Shown here one piece after another: positions 8,516 to 61,719 of a stretch of DNA of 64,000 nt; positions within the stretch are counted from its first letter, which is position 1, and the number at the start of each line of letters is the position of its first letter. The position numbers were made by a program, and so were the translations under genes. The stretch lies in the NCBI RefSeq assembly GCF_003790525.1, contig NZ_CP033635.1; one strand, written 5' to 3'. The notes below the pieces were generated by a model. The model did not search any database, had not been told where the DNA came from, and saw only the letters and a program-made list of their open reading frames with translations. The DNA is from Escherichia coli. Its GTDB lineage: Bacteria; Pseudomonadota; Gammaproteobacteria; Enterobacterales; Enterobacteriaceae.

Positions 8516-9763
8516 ATGGCCATTAAAAAACGCAGTGCAACCGTTGTGCCTGGCGCATCCGGTGCGGCAGCGGCAGTTAAGAATCCGCAGGCCTCTAAAA
8601 CCAGCTTCTGGGGTGAACTCCCGCAGCATGTGATGTCAGGGATTTCACGCATGGTGCCGACCTTAATTATGGGCGGTGTGATCCTCGCTTTCAGCCAGCT
8701 GATTGCTTATAGCTGGCTTAAAATTCCTGCTGATATCGGCATCATGGATGCTCTTAATAGCGGGAAATTCTCCGGTTTCGACCTCTCCTTACTGAAATTT
8801 GCCTGGTTGTCGCAGTCCTTCGGCGGCGTGTTGTTTGGTTTTGCCATTCCGATGTTTGCTGCATTTGTGGCGAACTCTATCGGTGGCAAACTGGCGTTCC
8901 CGGCTGGTTTTATCGGTGGGTTGATGTCTACCCAGCCGACGCAACTGCTGAACTTCGATCCCAGCACTATGCAATGGGCGACCTCTTCGCCGGTACCGTC
9001 CACCTTCATTGGTGCCCTGATTATTTCTATCGTTGCTGGTTACCTTGTGAAGTGGATGAACCAGAAAATCCAGTTACCGGATTTCCTGTTAGCGTTCAAA
9101 ACCACATTTTTGCTACCGATTCTTTCCGCCATTTTTGTCATGCTGGCGATGTACTACGTCATCACCCCCTTTGGTGGCTGGATCAACGGCGGTATCCGTA
9201 CCGTGCTGACTGCCGCAGGTGAGAAGGGCGCGCTGATGTACGCGATGGGGATCGCCGCGGCGACAGCAATCGACCTTGGTGGCCCGATCAACAAAGCAGC
9301 TGGTTTCGTTGCCTTCAGCTTTACCACTGACCACGTATTACCGGTTACCGCGCGTTCCATCGCTATTGTTATTCCGCCGATTGGTCTGGGTCTGGCGACC
9401 ATTATCGACCGCCGTTTAACCGGCAAACGTCTGTTCAGTGCTCAGCTTTATCCGCAGGGTAAAACCGCCATGTTCCTGGCGTTTATGGGGATCAGTGAAG
9501 GTGCGATTCCGTTTGCACTGGAAAGTCCCATCACCGCCATTCCGTCCTATATGGTTGGCGCGATTGTCGGCTCAACCGCTGCAGTCTGGCTGGGCGCAGT
9601 GCAATGGTTCCCGGAGTCCGCTATCTGGGCATGGCCGCTGGTCACTAACCTCGGCGTCTATATGGCGGGGATCGCGCTGGGAGCAGTCATTACTGCGCTG
9701 ATGGTGGTGTTCCTGCGTCTGATGATGTTCCGCAAAGGCAAATTGTTAATCGATAGCCTGTAA
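8516..9763 (+). CDS. fryC: PTS fructose-like IIC permease FryC, 415 aa
   Basis: Multi-TM permease translation directly downstream of fryB. Confidence 0.88.
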
Positions 9764-10863: not shown

Positions 10864-11900
10864 TGGATTTATCGCTATTAAAAGCGTTGAGCGAGGCAGA
10901 TGCGATCGCCTCCTCGGAACAGGAAGTACGGCAGATCCTGCTGGAAGAAGCGGATCGCCTGCAAAAAGAAGTGCGATTTGACGGCCTGGGATCGGTGCTG
11001 ATCCGCCTCAATGAATCGACAGGTCCGAAGGTGATGATCTGTGCACATATGGATGAAGTGGGATTTATGGTGCGCAGCATCTCCCGCGAAGGGGCGATTG
11101 ATGTGCTGCCAGTTGGCAACGTGCGCATGGCTGCCCGACAGCTTCAGCCGGTGCGCATCACCACCCGTGAAGAGTGCAAAATACCTGGCCTGCTTGACGG
11201 CGACCGGCAGGGGAATGACGTCAGCACCATGCGCGTGGACATTGGCGCGCGCTCGTGTGACGAAGTGATGCAGGCGGGAATTCGTCCAGGCGATCGCGTC
11301 ACCTTCGATACCACTTTTCAGGTTCTCCCTCACCAGCGGGTGATGGGGAAAGCCTTTGATGACCGCCTCGGTTGCTACCTGCTGGTGACGTTACTACGTG
11401 AGCTGCACGACGCCGAACTGCCTGCGGAAGTATGGCTGGTGGCAAGTTCCAGCGAAGAGGTGGGATTACGCGGCGGGCAAACTGCCACCCGCGCGGTGTC
11501 GCCGGATGTCGCCATTGTGCTTGATACCGCCTGCTGGGCGAAAAACTTTGATTATGGCGCGGCTAACCATCGTCAGATTGGTAACGGGCCGATGCTGGTG
11601 TTAAGCGATAAATCGCTGATTGCGCCGCCAAAACTTACCGCGTGGATTGAAACCGTGGCGGCAGAAATTGGCGTGCCGTTACAGGCAGATATGTTCAGCA
11701 ACGGCGGCACGGACGGTGGAGCGGTGCATTTAACCGGCACTGGCGTACCCACAGTGGTGATGGGGCCAGCCACCCGCCACGGACATTGCGCGGCATCGAT
11801 TGCCGATTGTCGCGACATTTTGCAGATGCAGCAACTTTTATCTGCCCTTATTCAACGTCTTACGCGTGAGACGGTTGTTCAACTGACGGATTTCAGATGA
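10863..11900 (+). CDS. ypdE: M42-family aminopeptidase YpdE, 345 aa
   Basis: Start codon overlaps the ypdF stop; M42 peptidase-like translation. Confidence 0.85.
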
Positions 11901-33056: not shown

Positions 33057-34220
33057 GTGGAACAGATTAATTCAAATAAAAAACATTCTGACAGAAAAAA
33101 ATATTTTGCTTTGTTAGCGGTAGTTTTATTTATTGCGTTTTCAGGTGCCTATGCCTATTGGTCAATGGAATTAGAAGACATGATTAGTACAGATGACGCC
33201 TATGTCACGGGAAATGCAGATCCAATTTCTGCACAAGTTTCAGGCAGCGTCACTGTCGTTAATCATAAAGATACGAACTACGTTCGACAGGGTGACATTT
33301 TAGTCTCACTGGATAAGACTGATGCCACTATCGCACTCAATAAAGCTAAAAATAATCTGGCCAATATTGTTCGGCAAACGAATAAACTGTACTTACAGGA
33401 TAAACAATACAGTGCCGAAGTCGCTTCAGCTCGTATTCAGTATCAACAATCTTTAGAAGATTATAACCGTCGTGTACCTTTAGCGAAGCAGGGGGTTATT
33501 TCAAAAGAAACGCTGGAGCATACCAAAGATACGTTAATAAGTAGCAAAGCGGCATTGAATGCTGCTATTCAGGCTTATAAAGCGAATAAAGCTTTAGTAA
33601 TGAACACACCATTAAACCGTCAGCCACAAGTCGTTGAAGCGGCGGATGCAACCAAAGAAGCCTGGTTGGCGCTTAAACGTACGGATATTAAGAGTCCGGT
33701 TACCGGCTATATTGCCCAGCGAAGTGTTCAGGTCGGCGAAACAGTGAGTCCCGGACAATCGTTAATGGCTGTCGTACCGGCACGTCAAATGTGGGTTAAT
33801 GCCAACTTTAAAGAAACACAACTCACGGATGTGCGGATTGGTCAATCGGTCAATATTATTAGCGATCTTTATGGTGAAAATGTTGTGTTTCATGGTCGGG
33901 TGACAGGGATCAATATGGGAACCGGCAATGCGTTCTCCTTATTACCTGCACAAAATGCGACAGGGAATTGGATCAAAATCGTTCAGCGTGTACCGGTTGA
34001 GGTTTCTCTTGATCCAAAAGAACTCATGGAACATCCCTTGCGCATTGGTTTATCGATGACTGCAACTATTGATACCAGGAACGAAGACATTGCCGATATG
34101 CCCGATCTGGCTTCAACCGTGACGTCCATGCCTGCTTATACCAGTAAGGCTTTAATTATCGATACCAGTCCGATAGAAAAAGAAATTAGCAACATTATTT
34201 CGCATAATGGACAACTTTAA
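33057..34220 (+). CDS. emrK: Multidrug efflux membrane-fusion protein EmrK (EmrA paralogue), 387 aa
   Basis: HlyD-family periplasmic adaptor translation with single N-terminal TM. Confidence 0.88.
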   Translation: MEQINSNKKHSDRKKYFALLAVVLFIAFSGAYAYWSMELEDMISTDDAYVTGNADPISAQVSGSVTVVNHKDTNYVRQGDILVSLDKTDATIALNKAKNNLANIVRQTNKLYLQDKQYSAEVASARIQYQQSLEDYNRRVPLAKQGVISKETLEHTKDTLISSKAALNAAIQAYKANKALVMNTPLNRQPQVVEAADATKEAWLALKRTDIKSPVTGYIAQRSVQVGETVSPGQSLMAVVPARQMWVNANFKETQLTDVRIGQSVNIISDLYGENVVFHGRVTGINMGTGNAFSLLPAQNATGNWIKIVQRVPVEVSLDPKELMEHPLRIGLSMTATIDTRNEDIADMPDLASTVTSMPAYTSKALIIDTSPIEKEISNIISHNGQL

Positions 34221-54965: not shown

Positions 54966-55199
54966 ATGAAAAAACAAAAGAAAATGCGATACGTATTACG
55001 CTGTATTCGTATCCCGCACGAAATCGACCATAAAATAAATCAGATATGTAAGGACAGAGAGATGAACTACTCCCAGTGCGTCAGAATGTTTATCTGTCAG
55101 GGAATTAAGGCCGGGGAAACGCAGGAAGAAGACCGCAACGGGCGCAATGTAGCGGGAGATGTGTGGGCCTGGGCAAATGACCAGAACTACACGACGTAA
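54966..55199 (+). CDS. Small putative ribbon-helix-helix-type DNA-binding protein, 77 aa
   Basis: Start at MKKQKKMRYVLRCIRIP with an upstream AGGGAGG ribosome-binding site; beta-strand then helices typical of RHH regulators; surrounded by GCGTAATAC repeats. Confidence 0.4.
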   Translation: MKKQKKMRYVLRCIRIPHEIDHKINQICKDREMNYSQCVRMFICQGIKAGETQEEDRNGRNVAGDVWAWANDQNYTT

Positions 55200-55249
55200 T
55201 ACAGAAATAACGTAGCCGGTTACACTCGCTGGCTGCGTTATACAAATCA

Positions 55250-55432
55250 CTATGAAGTTTTCAACTTCCTGCGCTTAGTGATGCGTACAAACGACTCAAG
55301 CGTACAAAAACAAGCCCCACACTCAATATTACTGCACTGGTAATACGTTTTGTAGATGTTTTGTTCGTGCTCTTCCAACGAACGACTACGGGTTCGGGCT
55401 GAAGCGCCACAGGCCGGGCAAGGGAAAGACAT
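55250..55432 (-). CDS. Ogr/Delta-family zinc-finger late-gene activator, 60 aa
   Basis: CPACGASARTRSRS...YQCSNIECGACFCTLES matches the P2 Ogr / P4 Delta C-X2-C-X22-C-X4-C signature. Confidence 0.7.
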   Translation of the reverse strand: MSFPCPACGASARTRSRSLEEHEQNIYKTYYQCSNIECGACFCTLESFVRITKRRKLKTS

Positions 55433-56046
55433 ATCACGCTCCTCTTACTGGTGTGAAATTTGACCTATTATATCTCCTGCCGCCCCCTCTGGCTGTATCA
55501 AATAAACCCGCAGCAGTCGCCGCGTATTACGGACGGACGCACCGTTCCCATGCTCACTCGTCACATTCCCCGTATCAGTTCTCTCTTACCGTAAGAACGG
55601 CTCTGGCTGGCGATAAAACTAACCCGGTCGGGCATTCCCGCAGTCTTTAGAGAAAATGTAATTTACCCCCTGAAACGTGGGCTGTTCCCCCGTCACCTGC
55701 GCGCGAAAAACTCACCGTTTTTTGTGCACGCACGAAATCGCCCTCCGGGTGCGCCAGTACTGGGCCGGATGGGCAAAAAGTTACTCTAAAAAATTGTGCA
55801 AATTTGTGCACTTTTGTGCAGATGAACAATAGCGTGAAAAAGAGTGCTTTTGAGAGATTTTTTATGGCAACTGCGCCGCGTGTATTACGTTTTTTACCAT
55901 CCCCGCCGCGCATGTACATACTTCATTTTTCTGCCAGACAACAGGGCAACTCCCCGTGACTGACAGCCCCAAAAAATCAATGATTGATGTTGCATTTTTG
56001 TTAAAGGTTAGACCAGTTGTTTTAGGGCTCTGCCTCATAATCCGGT

Positions 56047-56360
56047 GGGGGGTGCGCAAAGCGGTTACAACGGTTACAACACTCAAAAACACCACTTAAC
56101 AGCATGATTTTAATGGATATTGTTTGTAACCGCTTTGCGGTTACACTGCGGTTACAACGGTTACAGGTTTCAAAAAGCACTTTATTATCAATCAATTAAA
56201 AACTTAACCTGTAACCGCCTGTAACCTAACAAAACGGTTACATGTAACCGCGTTGTAACCGCTTTTATAACTCATCGGACCAGTTATAATATATTGATAT
56301 ATAATACAAAAATAAGTAATTTTAAATTTGTAACCGTTGTAACCGCTTTGCGCACCCCCC
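56047..56360. repeat. Heptamer-repeat cluster (GGTTACA / TGTAACC) bounded by 33-bp perfect inverted repeats, candidate replication origin
   Basis: 56047..56079 ggggggtgcgcaaagcggttacaacggttacaa is the exact reverse complement of 56328..56360; about 14 heptamer copies in both orientations lie between. Confidence 0.6.
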
Positions 56361-56611
56361 CCCAAACTTTAGCGCGACCCTTTAAAATGTTAATTAAACT
56401 CACTTACTCTGTATCTCTCTCGTTAACTCTCTGTTATTGAAATGTATCTCTCCACTGTTTCACTCTTTCTGATAATCAGGGGAAGCAAAAAATTGATGGC
56501 GGCACTACTGCAATATGGCCACCATTGCATTGCTGTTACCGTTGGTTCTGGCCAACAAAAAAGGTCAGCGGGAAACTGACCTCTTTTGCTGTGAATGCGG
56601 CGTTCTGCGGG

Positions 56612-57616
56612 TTACTCTGCTGGCTCTTTTTCTTCGGTGATCACTATGTTGGCTACCGGGTTAAATCTCATGGCATCTGCCAGATAATCCGGTGCAAAAT
56701 GTGCGTATGCCATAGTCTGCTGAATTGTCGCATGCCCAAGGATTTTTTGTAGCGCAAGAATGTTGCCACCGTTCATCACAAAGTGACTGGCGAATGTATG
56801 CCGCAATACATGCGCAGCCTGCCCCCTCGGTAAATCGGGTTTTATTTTTTTTAATGCCCGGCAAAACTCTCTGTACTTCACATCAAACAGTCGCCCGGTT
56901 TCTTTTGTTTTTACGGCATCGCATATTTCCTGCGACACAGGCACCGTTCTTTTTCTACCGTTTTTGGTTTCCAGAAACGTTATTCTGTTATGAACTATTT
57001 GCTCTCCATGCAATCTGCTGGCCTCACTCCAGCGGGCTCCGGTACAAAGACACAAGAGCGCAACCCTTCGTTGATCTCCATTCAGCCCGTCAAGCAACAA
57101 TGTGACCTCGTTTTTTGATAAAAAGGCCATTTCCCGCTGCTTTACATAAAGAACAGGAATACCACGAACCGGATGCTCTGCATCCCACAAACCGATCTTT
57201 TTCAGGGCTGTAAACATCCCCGATAATCTGTTCATGTATCTGTTTGCTGAGGACGGCTTTAATCCTTCCGCAATTTTCTGCGATCGCCATGCAATGATTT
57301 TTAATTTGTTGAGTTCTGCCGCAAACATGTCAGCTCCAAGCTCATTAATAATTTTGCCAAGTTGCTGTTTATCCGTGTTTGCCTTTCGCCTGTGCTGACC
57401 GTGATAGACCCACCACAATTCCAGTAAATCGCTAAGCGTTCTCCGGTCGCGATAGCCCTGTATAAACTCGCGCTTTTCGGCGTTCGCTATGATGTACCGT
57501 TCAGTTGCTGTAGCTATCGATTTTTTGTCAAATATTCTTCTGATGCGCTTCCCTTTACGTCCGCATGGCCTGATATCGAGCAGCCACCGCCCATCATGCA
57601 TCTTTCTGATCGGCAT
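56612..57616 (-). CDS. Tyrosine recombinase / phage-type integrase, 334 aa from Met MPIRK
   Basis: Box I TGARWSEASRL and box II HVLRHTFASH...LGH...Y motifs; strong AGGAGG ribosome-binding site 8 bp upstream; start 2 bp after the primase stop. Confidence 0.75.
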   Translation of the reverse strand: MPIRKMHDGRWLLDIRPCGRKGKRIRRIFDKKSIATATERYIIANAEKREFIQGYRDRRTLSDLLELWWVYHGQHRRKANTDKQQLGKIINELGADMFAAELNKLKIIAWRSQKIAEGLKPSSANRYMNRLSGMFTALKKIGLWDAEHPVRGIPVLYVKQREMAFLSKNEVTLLLDGLNGDQRRVALLCLCTGARWSEASRLHGEQIVHNRITFLETKNGRKRTVPVSQEICDAVKTKETGRLFDVKYREFCRALKKIKPDLPRGQAAHVLRHTFASHFVMNGGNILALQKILGHATIQQTMAYAHFAPDYLADAMRFNPVANIVITEEKEPAE

Positions 57617-57618
57617 GT

Positions 57619-60312
57619 TTAACTCCCCTCCTTGTAACTGAATATCCGGCATTTCAGTACTTCCGGCTCTCTGGCCTCGGCGACCCCTCTTCCGGCGTTT
57701 GCCTGTCTGGAGACCTCACTACGAATGGTTTTGCGGCCTGTCAAAGGTCGGGAACGTCCGGCTGCGAGCAACTCAATCATTTCGCGGTCAGTTCGGATCT
57801 CCACGCGGTGAATAGCGGCAGCCTGTGCCAGTTGCGGAATACTGATAGCAATCCCCTCGCGGCATCCCTTGCCGTAGTGGTTTACACCGTATTTTGTTAT
57901 GCCGTCCAGATAGTCGAACGCCTCCCAGAACGCTATTACTTCCGGCAAGTCATCCGTTACCGCTTTAACTTGTTCCGCTGCCATTCGTTCCAGTTCCTGG
58001 CATGTGGCATTAAGCCATTCATCCGGGATATCAATAACGCATTTCAGCGCCCTGACCAGCGCAATAAGTTGCGCGTGATTTTTGGCAATACGGGGATGGA
58101 GAATATTTTCGCAACCGCAAAGGCGGGTCGTTTCAGGCTCTGAGAGCGCCAGAAACATTTCCATAATTGCCCGTTCACGGCTGACTGCCCGATGAATAAA
58201 CCCTGACACCTTCTCAACGGGGTAGAGTTCCAGTCGTCTCGCCGCCAGCCGGGTATCAGACGAGTGGCGCTTTTTATCGGTATATATGCGAATCAGTCGC
58301 TCAATAATTGCAAGTGAGGCGTTTACCCTGGCATTCTGTGCAATCACGATAGCGCCCTTAAAATCCGGGTCATAGGTGTTGTTATTGTTGGTCTTAACGC
58401 CACGAACGCCGATACCGCCGCCGTTATAGAGGCTTTTCAGGTTATCGAAGTCAAACGCACCTCTTTTTTGCGCATTGCCTCCCCTGTCTGCTTCAATCAG
58501 AACAACAGGTAATCCGGCGACCTGTCCAAAGGTGCGCTTCCAGCCCGCCTCTGATCCTTTGGTTGGATCAACGCCTTCATAGTTGTCACGACCGCACAAC
58601 CGCCAGCAAAAATCAATCAATGTTGATTTACCCGTTCCGGGCTCCCCGGTGACTTCAAGGAAGGGGAAGGATTCTTCTTTATCCCGGATTTGTTCGCTGA
58701 ACAGGGAGCCCAACCAGAAAGCCAGGGTAATAATTCCTTTTTCACCAAAAGCCAGCCAGAGATCTTCCACCCAGGACTCTGTAAACTCATCCGGTTTTTT
58801 GTAGTTAATCTGTAATGTGGGTTTTTCGCTTAATGGTTTTGCGTTTATGCCATCAATTTCAAAATAATCTTCGTCATTGATTTCATAAGTTTTTCCCTTG
58901 TAAACAGCAATATCATTAAACAGCCATGCCCCAATCGCCTTGTTGTATCCGATAAAATCCTGACCAATAACCTCTTTTATTGCGGGAAGGTCATTTTTTA
59001 TTAATGCGTCAAGGTGCGCAGTTGTTCCGGTATAAATGCCGCCTTTTGCCACATGCAACAGGCGTTTTTTAAATTCAGATGCGGATGTCAATTGTCCTGA
59101 TGTAAAGGTGTTTTTCACCGTAGCACCATCCGGGAACGTAACACGGAAGTAATACCATGCTTCATCCGTGTCATTATTTCTAATGTAATAAAGCGGCGCT
59201 GGGTTACAGTTTGCGATTTCTTTTACTGCGCCAGATTCCTTAAGTGCAATTTTGCGCGCTTCATCCTCATCAACACTTCTCTCATTCTTGGCACGCTCTA
59301 CAGCTTTCATATAGCGCTCAATGTCCAGTTTGAACCAGAAAACACGGTTATCAAAAGTAAAATGAAATTCCTTCCGCTCACGAAAGGAAAATATTATTAG
59401 CGCCTTATCTCTCGGAGATTTCGCCAGCAATAAATCACCGTAATGACGGTATCTTTTCACATCATGGCCACGCAGCTTTCCGGCGATGTGTAAATCATTC
59501 CAGTCGCGTTTATTGTTGTTTTTACCTGGCAACGCCGCTGCCGTTCTCCAGCCGTCTTCGGCGCTGCGTTCTGCATGTTTTTTCGCGTAACGCTCACCCG
59601 CACGCCCGTTATCCAGCGCCCACACAATAACCGGACGGGGATTATCCCCGCACAGCTTCGCCAGCTCTTCCAGCGCCTTATCAGGGTAGTTCACGGCAGA
59701 CATGACAGAAACGGCCGCAATGCCATTCTGGTTAAGGCTGATGGCATCAAAGATGCCCTCACAAATCCAGATTTCTTTGGCCTTGCTTAAATCTGCTCCC
59801 GGATAAGCCCACCACAACCCCTTGTAGCTGCCGGAAAAATTCGCCTTGCGCGCGAAGCGTCCCGGTCGGTCTATGATGCGCTCCCACCACACGCCGTCAG
59901 CCAGCGTAAAACGCACAGTAGCGGCCTGTTCGCCGTTTTCCTTGTCCTGGTATCGCTCCTGAGTAAATGCGCCCTTCAGTGGCCCCACAGCAATATTGCG
60001 CGCCTCCTGAAGATAAGCTGCCACCGCTGCATATGGCTCGTCTTTCGTGCTGATATAACGATCTGACCATGATGAAAACACATCCGGGTAAAGTTCTTTG
60101 GTCAGCAGGTCTGTACCGCATTTATTTTCGCGCCCACAGTGTACGATGTACGGCCTTTCAAGGCTGGTAAACAACTCTTTCTTTCCACATTGCGGACAAA
60201 CACCATACCGGAGGTAGTTATTTTCTTCTTTGAAGTTGTAATCACGGATAAGACGGTTAATAATCTCTTTTCTGATGTCAGATTTCATATATAAAACTCC
60301 ACCCCACTGCAC
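57619..60312 (-). CDS. Primase-helicase replication protein (P4 alpha-like), 897 aa
   Basis: N-terminal zinc-binding CPQCG...HCG..C, Toprim-like CEGIFDAISL region and Walker A TGEPGTGKST. Confidence 0.75.
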   Translation of the reverse strand: MQWGGVLYMKSDIRKEIINRLIRDYNFKEENNYLRYGVCPQCGKKELFTSLERPYIVHCGRENKCGTDLLTKELYPDVFSSWSDRYISTKDEPYAAVAAYLQEARNIAVGPLKGAFTQERYQDKENGEQAATVRFTLADGVWWERIIDRPGRFARKANFSGSYKGLWWAYPGADLSKAKEIWICEGIFDAISLNQNGIAAVSVMSAVNYPDKALEELAKLCGDNPRPVIVWALDNGRAGERYAKKHAERSAEDGWRTAAALPGKNNNKRDWNDLHIAGKLRGHDVKRYRHYGDLLLAKSPRDKALIIFSFRERKEFHFTFDNRVFWFKLDIERYMKAVERAKNERSVDEDEARKIALKESGAVKEIANCNPAPLYYIRNNDTDEAWYYFRVTFPDGATVKNTFTSGQLTSASEFKKRLLHVAKGGIYTGTTAHLDALIKNDLPAIKEVIGQDFIGYNKAIGAWLFNDIAVYKGKTYEINDEDYFEIDGINAKPLSEKPTLQINYKKPDEFTESWVEDLWLAFGEKGIITLAFWLGSLFSEQIRDKEESFPFLEVTGEPGTGKSTLIDFCWRLCGRDNYEGVDPTKGSEAGWKRTFGQVAGLPVVLIEADRGGNAQKRGAFDFDNLKSLYNGGGIGVRGVKTNNNNTYDPDFKGAIVIAQNARVNASLAIIERLIRIYTDKKRHSSDTRLAARRLELYPVEKVSGFIHRAVSRERAIMEMFLALSEPETTRLCGCENILHPRIAKNHAQLIALVRALKCVIDIPDEWLNATCQELERMAAEQVKAVTDDLPEVIAFWEAFDYLDGITKYGVNHYGKGCREGIAISIPQLAQAAAIHRVEIRTDREMIELLAAGRSRPLTGRKTIRSEVSRQANAGRGVAEAREPEVLKCRIFSYKEGS

Positions 60313-61281: not shown

Positions 61282-61719
61282 TTAAACATGGCACGCCTCC
61301 CGGACACGGATACGGGCAACAAAGACCAGACGGGATGCCGGAAGCAGGGCGCGCGCTTCGCGCTCACTGGCAGCGGTAACGGTATGAAGGCGGATATTTT
61401 TACCGTGGCACTGCATAAAGCGCCAGATAAAATCAGGGCGTGTTGATATAGCCATTTTGGCGGCTCCTTGATTAAGTTTACGGAGTCTCGCCAGCACGCT
61501 GTCAAACATGGTGGCGGGACGTAACAGGGTTGACAGACTGGCAATCAAGGAACCAGCGAGCGCAAAGGCTCCCCCATTACGCCCCGCCATAATACGGGGT
61601 AGGGTGGAATTACGGGCACAAAAAAACCGCATTACGGAAATATAGCGGCTACCCGCTTGATTGTTCAGGCTGTCAAACCCGGCACCCGCTTTATGAGGTG
61701 CGGGCAAACGATACGCCAT
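61282..61719 (-). CDS. Hypothetical protein, ~145 aa from Met MAYRLPAP
   Basis: ORF in the same-strand array between alpA and the primase gene; start codon uncertain. Confidence 0.3.
   Translation of the reverse strand: MAYRLPAPHKAGAGFDSLNNQAGSRYISVMRFFCARNSTLPRIMAGRNGGAFALAGSLIASLSTLLRPATMFDSVLARLRKLNQGAAKMAISTRPDFIWRFMQCHGKNIRLHTVTAASEREARALLPASRLVFVARIRVREACHV

Follow-up and report, generated by a model that had tools for sequence, protein, structure and literature searches.

A phased TTGTGCA array in a P4-like satellite of Escherichia coli as the probable distal part of a P88-type cos packaging signal

The cosB site of phage lambda is built of R3-I1-R2-R1 sites bound by gpNu1 together with IHF, and the IHF site is an integral part of it. 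For phage P2 and the satellite P4, work by Ziermann and Calendar in 1990 reportedly defined the cos site, with a "55-bp" shared core and 19-nt 5' cohesive ends. P2 and P4 have a core cos signal in common (PMC9122126, PMC3931495), and transduction of P2 cosmids rises more than 1000-fold when longer cos flanks are included (PMC9594776). Satellites of other lineages use a comparable strategy, as SaPIbov5-type cos islands carry the cos of their helper and are packaged by the helper terminase (PMC5052747). Additionally, the cos of phage phiCTX is surrounded, according to its record (NC_003278), by repeats R3-R6 and an IHF site. A satellite-borne cos site of the Peduoviridae/P4 type is a known kind of feature, to which the locus described here newly adds a P88-type member.

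The window, that is, the whole 64-kb stretch of E. coli DNA analysed, contains a region 97% identical to a 12.5-kb island that some 50 genomes of E. coli carry, inserted between hpt and gcd. This island is a P4-like satellite, which encodes a Toprim primase-helicase (alpha homologue, 57619-60312), an Ogr/Delta zinc-finger protein (55250-55432, minus strand; Pfam Ogr_Delta) and a P2-family major-capsid homologue (52820-54232, minus strand; Pfam PF05125, E = 2e-73), together with an integrase, an HTH regulator, an Icd-like gene and a PemK/MazF toxin-antitoxin pair. Upstream of the Icd-like gene, a C4 antisense RNA, the P4 CI-type immunity RNA (61507-61594, minus strand; 74.6 bits in Rfam), and an isrK RNA (61620-61701, minus strand; 50.6 bits, right at the Rfam gathering score) lie side by side, a pair which confirms a P4-type immunity region. 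Neither a terminase nor a portal gene was found in the part of the island covering 52.8-60.3 kb, and the satellite must therefore be packaged by a helper phage. While P4 carries sid and psu and no capsid gene, this satellite has a capsid homologue of its own, with 35% identity to the capsid protein of P88 and about 170 additional aa at its N terminus; a 236-aa coiled-coil-like ORF (54091-54801, minus strand) comes before it. A second tyrosine recombinase gene (56612-57652, minus strand) is placed between the primase-helicase gene and a field of GGTTACA heptamers, of which there are 13 copies in both orientations between 56063 and 56344 (18 in the whole window versus 6.4 expected). A 36-nt inverted repeat, 97% complementary (56044-56079 and 56328-56363), brackets this field, whose centre is AT-rich, and the field as a whole (56044-56363) probably corresponds to the satellite origin or to crr-type iterons for the primase-helicase. 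Upstream of the island, the window also contains a 2637-aa ORF (43019-50932, plus strand).

In the interval between the Ogr-like gene and the GGTTACA cluster, three exact copies of TTGTGCA are present on the plus strand, just where a preliminary description of this DNA had located them. The region, read directly from the window, has the plus-strand sequence aaaaaaTTGTGCAaatTTGTGCActtTTGTGCAgatg, and an exact search places the copies at 55794, 55804 and 55814, with a fourth one at 55722. The period is thus exactly 10 bp and not the 11 bp previously proposed on the basis of starts at 55795, 55806 and 55817, which are 1-3 nt off; the ten-letter units then given, TTGTGCAaat and TTGTGCActt, already imply the shorter period. 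The fourth copy, earlier set near 55724, does exist, with its start 2 nt before. Over the whole window TTGTGCA is not enriched (12 matches versus 16.8 expected), and apart from the array no exact 7-mer triple occurs in it at a period of 8-30 bp; block shuffles (n = 200) produced a mean of 0.015 such triples, with at least one in only 2 of the 200. The phased arrangement of these copies is far from chance.

Comparison of 55200-56500 with 50,697 phage records by blastn gave matches for a single short block, 55655-55821, at about 81% identity, in P88, 500465-2, P884B11 and other Peduoviridae. In P88 and 500465-2 the matching DNA is non-coding and directly follows the 3' end of the portal gene. 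The P2 record places cosL at 1-19 and the stop codon of Q at 187, and a segment just downstream of the portal gene in P88-like phages therefore occupies the position of the P2 cos; a location downstream of the portal gene was also found in 97 of the loci listed from IMG/VR, as detailed below. The homology between satellite and presumed helpers in this part of the island is a short block centred on cos, and P88 carries the identical string aaaaaaaTTGTGCAaatTTGTGCActaTTGTGCA plus the same fourth copy. When the larger segment 52100-60000 was compared with the phage records, the first Peduoviridae match in the list fell on the second integrase gene, and the 25 matches listed did not include the 167-bp cos match.

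Within this block, the sequence GGTGACGGGGGAACAGCCC (55697-55679, minus strand) shares 13 of its 19 positions with the cohesive end of P2/P4, GGCGAGGCGGGGAAAGCAC, and its G-rich strand reads toward the portal side, in the same orientation as in P2. We accordingly designate 55679-55697 as the putative cosN, an assignment made from the 13/19 identity and the position only, as are the nick positions that we infer for it; none of the phage records examined starts at the proposed cohesive ends. Several otherwise 95-97% identical islands (L001, L251, L252 and L258) have T for G at 55680 (GTGCTG.. versus GGGCTG..), by which the G-rich strand ends in ..AACAGCAC, nearer to the ..AAAGCAC of P2, and related islands end in ..AGCAC like P2. 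This G/T difference makes the cohesive-end sequence polymorphic among these islands.

To delimit the conserved part of the region, we scanned IMG/VR with the putative 19-nt cohesive-end sequence alone, excluding the repeats from the query, and retrieved at least 120 loci. A P88-like portal or large-terminase gene stands on the upstream side of the 19-mer in 97 of the 120 loci listed, with portal identities of 68-100% at the amino acid level, and in the remaining listed loci the sequence ends on the portal side, save for one chance match. In essentially every one of the 120 loci listed the 19-mer is followed by the array, and no primase-helicase homologue was found in the cos-flanking DNA (up to about 10 kb on either side) of any of them. 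A total of 107 unique cos regions were aligned using the 19-mer as anchor and thinned to 49 representatives below 93% identity, for which majority-base fractions were calculated. In the alignment of the 107 unique regions, conservation begins at ..ATTTACCCCCTG and stops at the third repeat. Related islands, with alpha proteins 89-100% identical, also retain the array, one of them (L255) diverging from the window right after the third repeat, so that the conservation check suggested in the preliminary description came out positive in islands and, beyond them, in more than 100 phages.

Combining blastn and the anchored alignment, the whole conserved cos module of the satellite spans 159 bp, from 55662 to 55820, with no strand assigned. 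The putative cosN abuts an invariant TGCGCGC on the plus strand (55698-55704, majority-base fraction 0.99), which is followed by a T-run with the proximal, fourth TTGTGCA (55716-55728, plus strand, the copy itself at 55722-55728; fraction 0.98, exact in 47 of the 49 representatives), whose TGCA core lies 27 nt from cosN in the window. Then comes a 58-nt interval (55729-55786, no strand assigned), a candidate for wrapped or bent DNA, which is variable in sequence and constant in length (fraction 0.71), and after it a conserved A-run (55787-55793, plus strand, 0.97) that introduces the array. The three repeats, all on the plus strand, are R1 (55794-55800; conservation 0.99, exact in 46/49), R2 (55804-55810; 0.98, exact in 43/49), which is part of a palindrome GTGCAC, and R3 (55814-55820; 0.95, exact in 34/49), the last conserved block. 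The fraction falls to 0.78-0.88 in the 3-nt spacers between the repeats and to 0.39 in the 40 nt past R3, where the DNA is unrelated from lineage to lineage. In 43 of the 49 representatives cosN is separated from the proximal copy by the same 25 nt and from R1 by the same 96 nt, and the interval sequence differs between lineages although its length stays fixed.

A second scan, performed with the P2-type cohesive end, provided 113 unique sequences and 96 representatives, P2 and P4 included. Read in the orientation of the window, these sites are organized as cosN - CGCCCGCTTCATGGGGCGG - TTTTAATGCAgtTGCAt - about 60 nt of variable sequence - cATGCAaaanCATGCAcnnnnTGCATGCA - unrelated DNA. Across the 96 representatives, TGCA is present at +25 in 98%, at +31 in 84%, at +97 in 72%, at +107 in 57% and at +116 or +120 in 30-40%, against a background of 0.004 per position; the third distal copy is thus looser in P2-type sites, and a three-copy rule is not strict. 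In P2 itself the TGCA cores are found 25, 97, 107 and 119 nt from cosN (array 33452-33477), and in P4 at 25, 31, 97, 107 and 120 nt (array 11501-11527, between psu and the right end), compared with 27, 99, 109 and 119 nt in the window (array 55794-55820). The geometry derived from P2, P4 and the 96 P2-type sites, on the arm away from the portal, is therefore present in the window, and P88-type and P2-type cos sites, which are mutually unalignable, share a "1 + 3" arrangement of copies with GTGCA cores in the former and ATGCA cores in the latter. The small terminase subunits of both types are 37% identical, and a lineage-specific core combined with this level of identity fits a reader encoded by the phage and not a host factor. 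Our search of the accessible full-text literature, outside of which the 1990 P2/P4 cos paper lies, yielded no description of the distal copies of the P2/P4 cos.

In position and geometry the locus is equivalent to the experimentally defined cos of P2 and P4: both have the same place relative to the portal gene and TGCA copies on the arm away from the portal, next to a G-rich 19-nt cosN that is putative here, in both the homology between helper and satellite ends past the third copy, and the logic of piracy is alike, with the cos of a helper residing in a satellite for which no terminase gene was found. They differ in the core (ATGCA in P2/P4, GTGCA here) and at 6 of the 19 cosN positions, the DNA cannot be aligned, and the copies are spaced by 10 and 9-13 bp in P2-type sites but by exactly 10/10 bp here. 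In addition, an integrase gene is common to this satellite and its presumed helpers, which is not so for the P2-P4 pair as described in PMC9122126. A more distant parallel is offered by phiCTX, also one of the Peduoviridae, in which repeats are marked around cos and the right arm bears GCAG-type copies at 20-35 nt and at 75-108 nt from cosN, including two that are 10 bp apart; its motif, its Pseudomonas host, its 21-nt cohesive end and a third distal copy 16 bp from the second are different. This right arm (L262, 273-360) contains GCAGGGTTTC/GCAGGGATTC 10 bp apart and three GCAGAAA copies, 20-108 nt from cosN. These repeats suggest that repeat-bearing right arms are general in the cos sites of Peduoviridae. 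The cos-type phage-inducible islands represented by SaPIbov5 follow the same strategy of copying the helper's cos, but belong to Gram-positive siphoviruses with HNH-dependent terminases, unrelated in lineage and sequence, and are not known to have a similar repeat geometry.

Given the shared cos position, the selective conservation of the copies and the same geometry in P2 and P4, we consider it probable that the array forms the distal part of the cos packaging signal of this satellite, where it would act as a cosB-like dock for the helper terminase. According to this proposal, the satellite would carry, as a copy of 159 bp, the cos of a P88-like (Xuanwuvirus/Gemsvirus, Peduoviridae) phage, laid out as cosN, one TTGTGCA at a distance of about 25 nt, some 70 bp free in sequence and fixed in length, and three copies at 10 bp. 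These copies would share one helical face, with phased A/T runs around and between them. In a model based on lambda cosB, an oligomer of the helper small terminase subunit (the gpM homologue, 266 aa in P88) would bind the phased copies and the proximal copy and would bend or wrap the intervening DNA, and the large subunit would thereby be placed to nick cosN, generating 19-nt 5' cohesive ends and starting the packaging of the satellite. Lambda cosB resembles the present site in having several short repeats on one side, adjoining the nicking site, which serve as a dock for the small terminase subunit and set the place of the large one, a correspondence of function that here would hold by analogy. 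In contrast, the sequences and the small-terminase family are unrelated, the lambda R sites are 16 bp long and of mixed orientation instead of 7-bp copies in tandem at 10 bp, and an integral IHF site exists in lambda cosB, with none identified here when the array was read by eye. The idea of the preliminary description that a protein binds cooperatively to copies phased on the same DNA face is probably right and is retained, the array being conserved in relatives, while its choice of the island's own Ogr-like protein or primase-helicase as the binder, or of the array as a unit with the heptamer cluster, is abandoned.

Several other explanations were weighed against terminase docking. One of them, which we judge unlikely, regards the array as a structural part of cos recognized by a host protein (IHF, Fis or HU), or as acting through the intrinsic curvature of the phased A/T runs alone; it could appeal to the alternation of an A-run, AAATTT and TTTT tracts with GTGC cores at a 10-bp phase, to the IHF site annotated near cos in the phiCTX record and to that of lambda cosB. 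Nevertheless, P2-type and P88-type phages of the same host, E. coli, keep ATGCA and GTGCA, respectively, at the same positions, and different cores in phages of one host point toward a phage-specific reader; moreover, the conserved letters are those of the GTGCA cores (0.95-0.99) and not those of the A/T spacers (0.78-0.88), and no match to the IHF consensus was seen on reading the array by eye. It is quite improbable, in our view, that the conserved block serves mainly as a recombination anchor or boundary for the cassette next to cos, or as an outward promoter, with repeats incidental to packaging. The homology does stop exactly after R3 in every lineage, with many unrelated sequences beyond, and the old-tin transcript of P2 starts (33424/33426) about 25 nt past the third copy, but an anchor needs no fixed 1 + 3 geometry, nor its recurrence in two unalignable cos types, and within the block it is the interval that diverges freely, not the copies. 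For a promoter, in turn, the window shows no promoter-like site over the array, and the neighbouring cassette gene of P88 is oriented toward cos. A part of this idea is compatible with terminase docking, since the conservation beside a recombination hotspot could come partly from use of the block as a homology anchor.

Binding by a protein of the island, with the array as an operator or iteron for the C-terminal domain of the primase-helicase or for the Ogr-like activator, in replication or late transcription, appears very improbable to us. The array does adjoin the putative origin cluster and the ogr-like gene, and regulators use direct repeats phased at 10 bp, such as the P2 Cox boxes in P4 at 9176-9205, a stretch annotated as "ori type 2 repeat". 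Cox boxes (TTAAAGNCA) are bound cooperatively by a small phage regulator and, with three direct copies at exactly 10 bp in P4, come nearest in form to what the preliminary description had in mind, but their motif is another one and they are sited in promoter/attP regions, not at cos. Against an island regulator, about 100 phages have the array, always at the cos position, with no primase-helicase homologue found in their cos-flanking DNA, and its motif is unrelated to the 13 GGTTACA copies. Neither a sigma-70 promoter-like site nor an Ogr/Delta dyad is present at the array, the dyad TGT-N12-ACA, which in late promoters activated by Ogr/Delta is placed about 55 nt upstream of the promoter, being absent from 49377-56871 and occurring in the window at chance frequency. 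Finally, we give practically no weight to the repeats being part of a gene for a 90-aa "hypothetical protein" (55647-55919, minus strand), even though the window contains this ORF and PGAP annotates it in related genomes of E. coli. Pfam gave no match for it, a 10-bp period is not a multiple of 3, the same DNA is a non-coding cos flank in phages, the open stretch on the minus strand over the array has a median of 54 codons in 48 phage representatives, and the open plus-strand frame varies between lineages, so that no frame is conserved. With neither a family match nor a conserved frame, the "hypothetical protein" calls over cos (PGAP 55647-55919 and, in the P88 record, L002 3926-4069) are probably false genes. 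As for RNA, Rfam gave no family in the array region and matched only C4 and isrK, at 61.5-61.7 kb.

Among E. coli genomes with the full island, 36 of 52 show one or more additional P88-type matches to the cos segment, compared with about 21% of the other genomes (raw counts, clonality uncorrected; any match in 1172 of 5426 genomes), which suggests that the island is co-resident with a matching helper, these second sites being sequence matches only. Additionally, the second recombinase gene shows 74% DNA identity with the integrase of the Xuanwuvirus phages P884B11, Chuche and PhiR44_2; with recombinase and cos both matched in the same phages, two modules are common to the satellite and its presumed helpers. 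The helpers are likely to be P88-like Xuanwuvirus/Gemsvirus phages rather than P2.

These results place the packaging signal of the satellite at 55662-55820, name its likely helpers and provide a compact picture of how the cos of Peduoviridae is built, of use in predicting helper-satellite pairs. They could also serve the design of efficient P2/P4-type cosmids, for which longer cos flanks matter (PMC9594776), and the cos layout may help explain the exact start points of hypervariable defence-gene hotspots. It is possible that the conserved 1 + 3 geometry with its lineage-specific core is a determinant of the specificity of packaging between helper and satellite. Going further, we tentatively raise the possibility that the "1 + 3" TGCA geometry (at about 25, 97-99, 107-109 and 119 nt from the cohesive end) might constitute a terminase-docking code common to the cos sites of the whole family Peduoviridae, in which a difference of one or two bases, GTGCA in P88-like and ATGCA in P2-like phages, together with cosN, would decide which helper and satellite pair; if this were true, satellite-helper pairing could be read, and re-engineered, from some 160 bp.

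During the analysis some more specific identities for the array were tried and rejected. A replication iteron of the P4 type (ori/crr type I repeats bound by alpha) would be expected to cluster at the origin and to be confined to elements with the cognate initiator, but the motif of the array differs from that of the GGTTACA cluster and occurs in phages for which no alpha homologue was found in the cos flanks, and a terminator-like match at the array is merely the self-complementarity of GTGCA..GTGCAC. Arm sites at attP for the second recombinase were discarded likewise, as the homologous phage integrase has neither GGTTACA nor a TTGTGCA array beside it. The array is not the Cox box of the helper either: the helper switch region, read from the repressor gene to cox in Xuanwuvirus P884B11, lacks TGTGCA and has AGCC-type 10-bp repeats instead. 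There, three AGCC units about 10 bp apart (ataAGCCgat ataAGCCatt ttgAGCCatt; L264, 2905-2950) are candidate Cox boxes of a P88-type helper.
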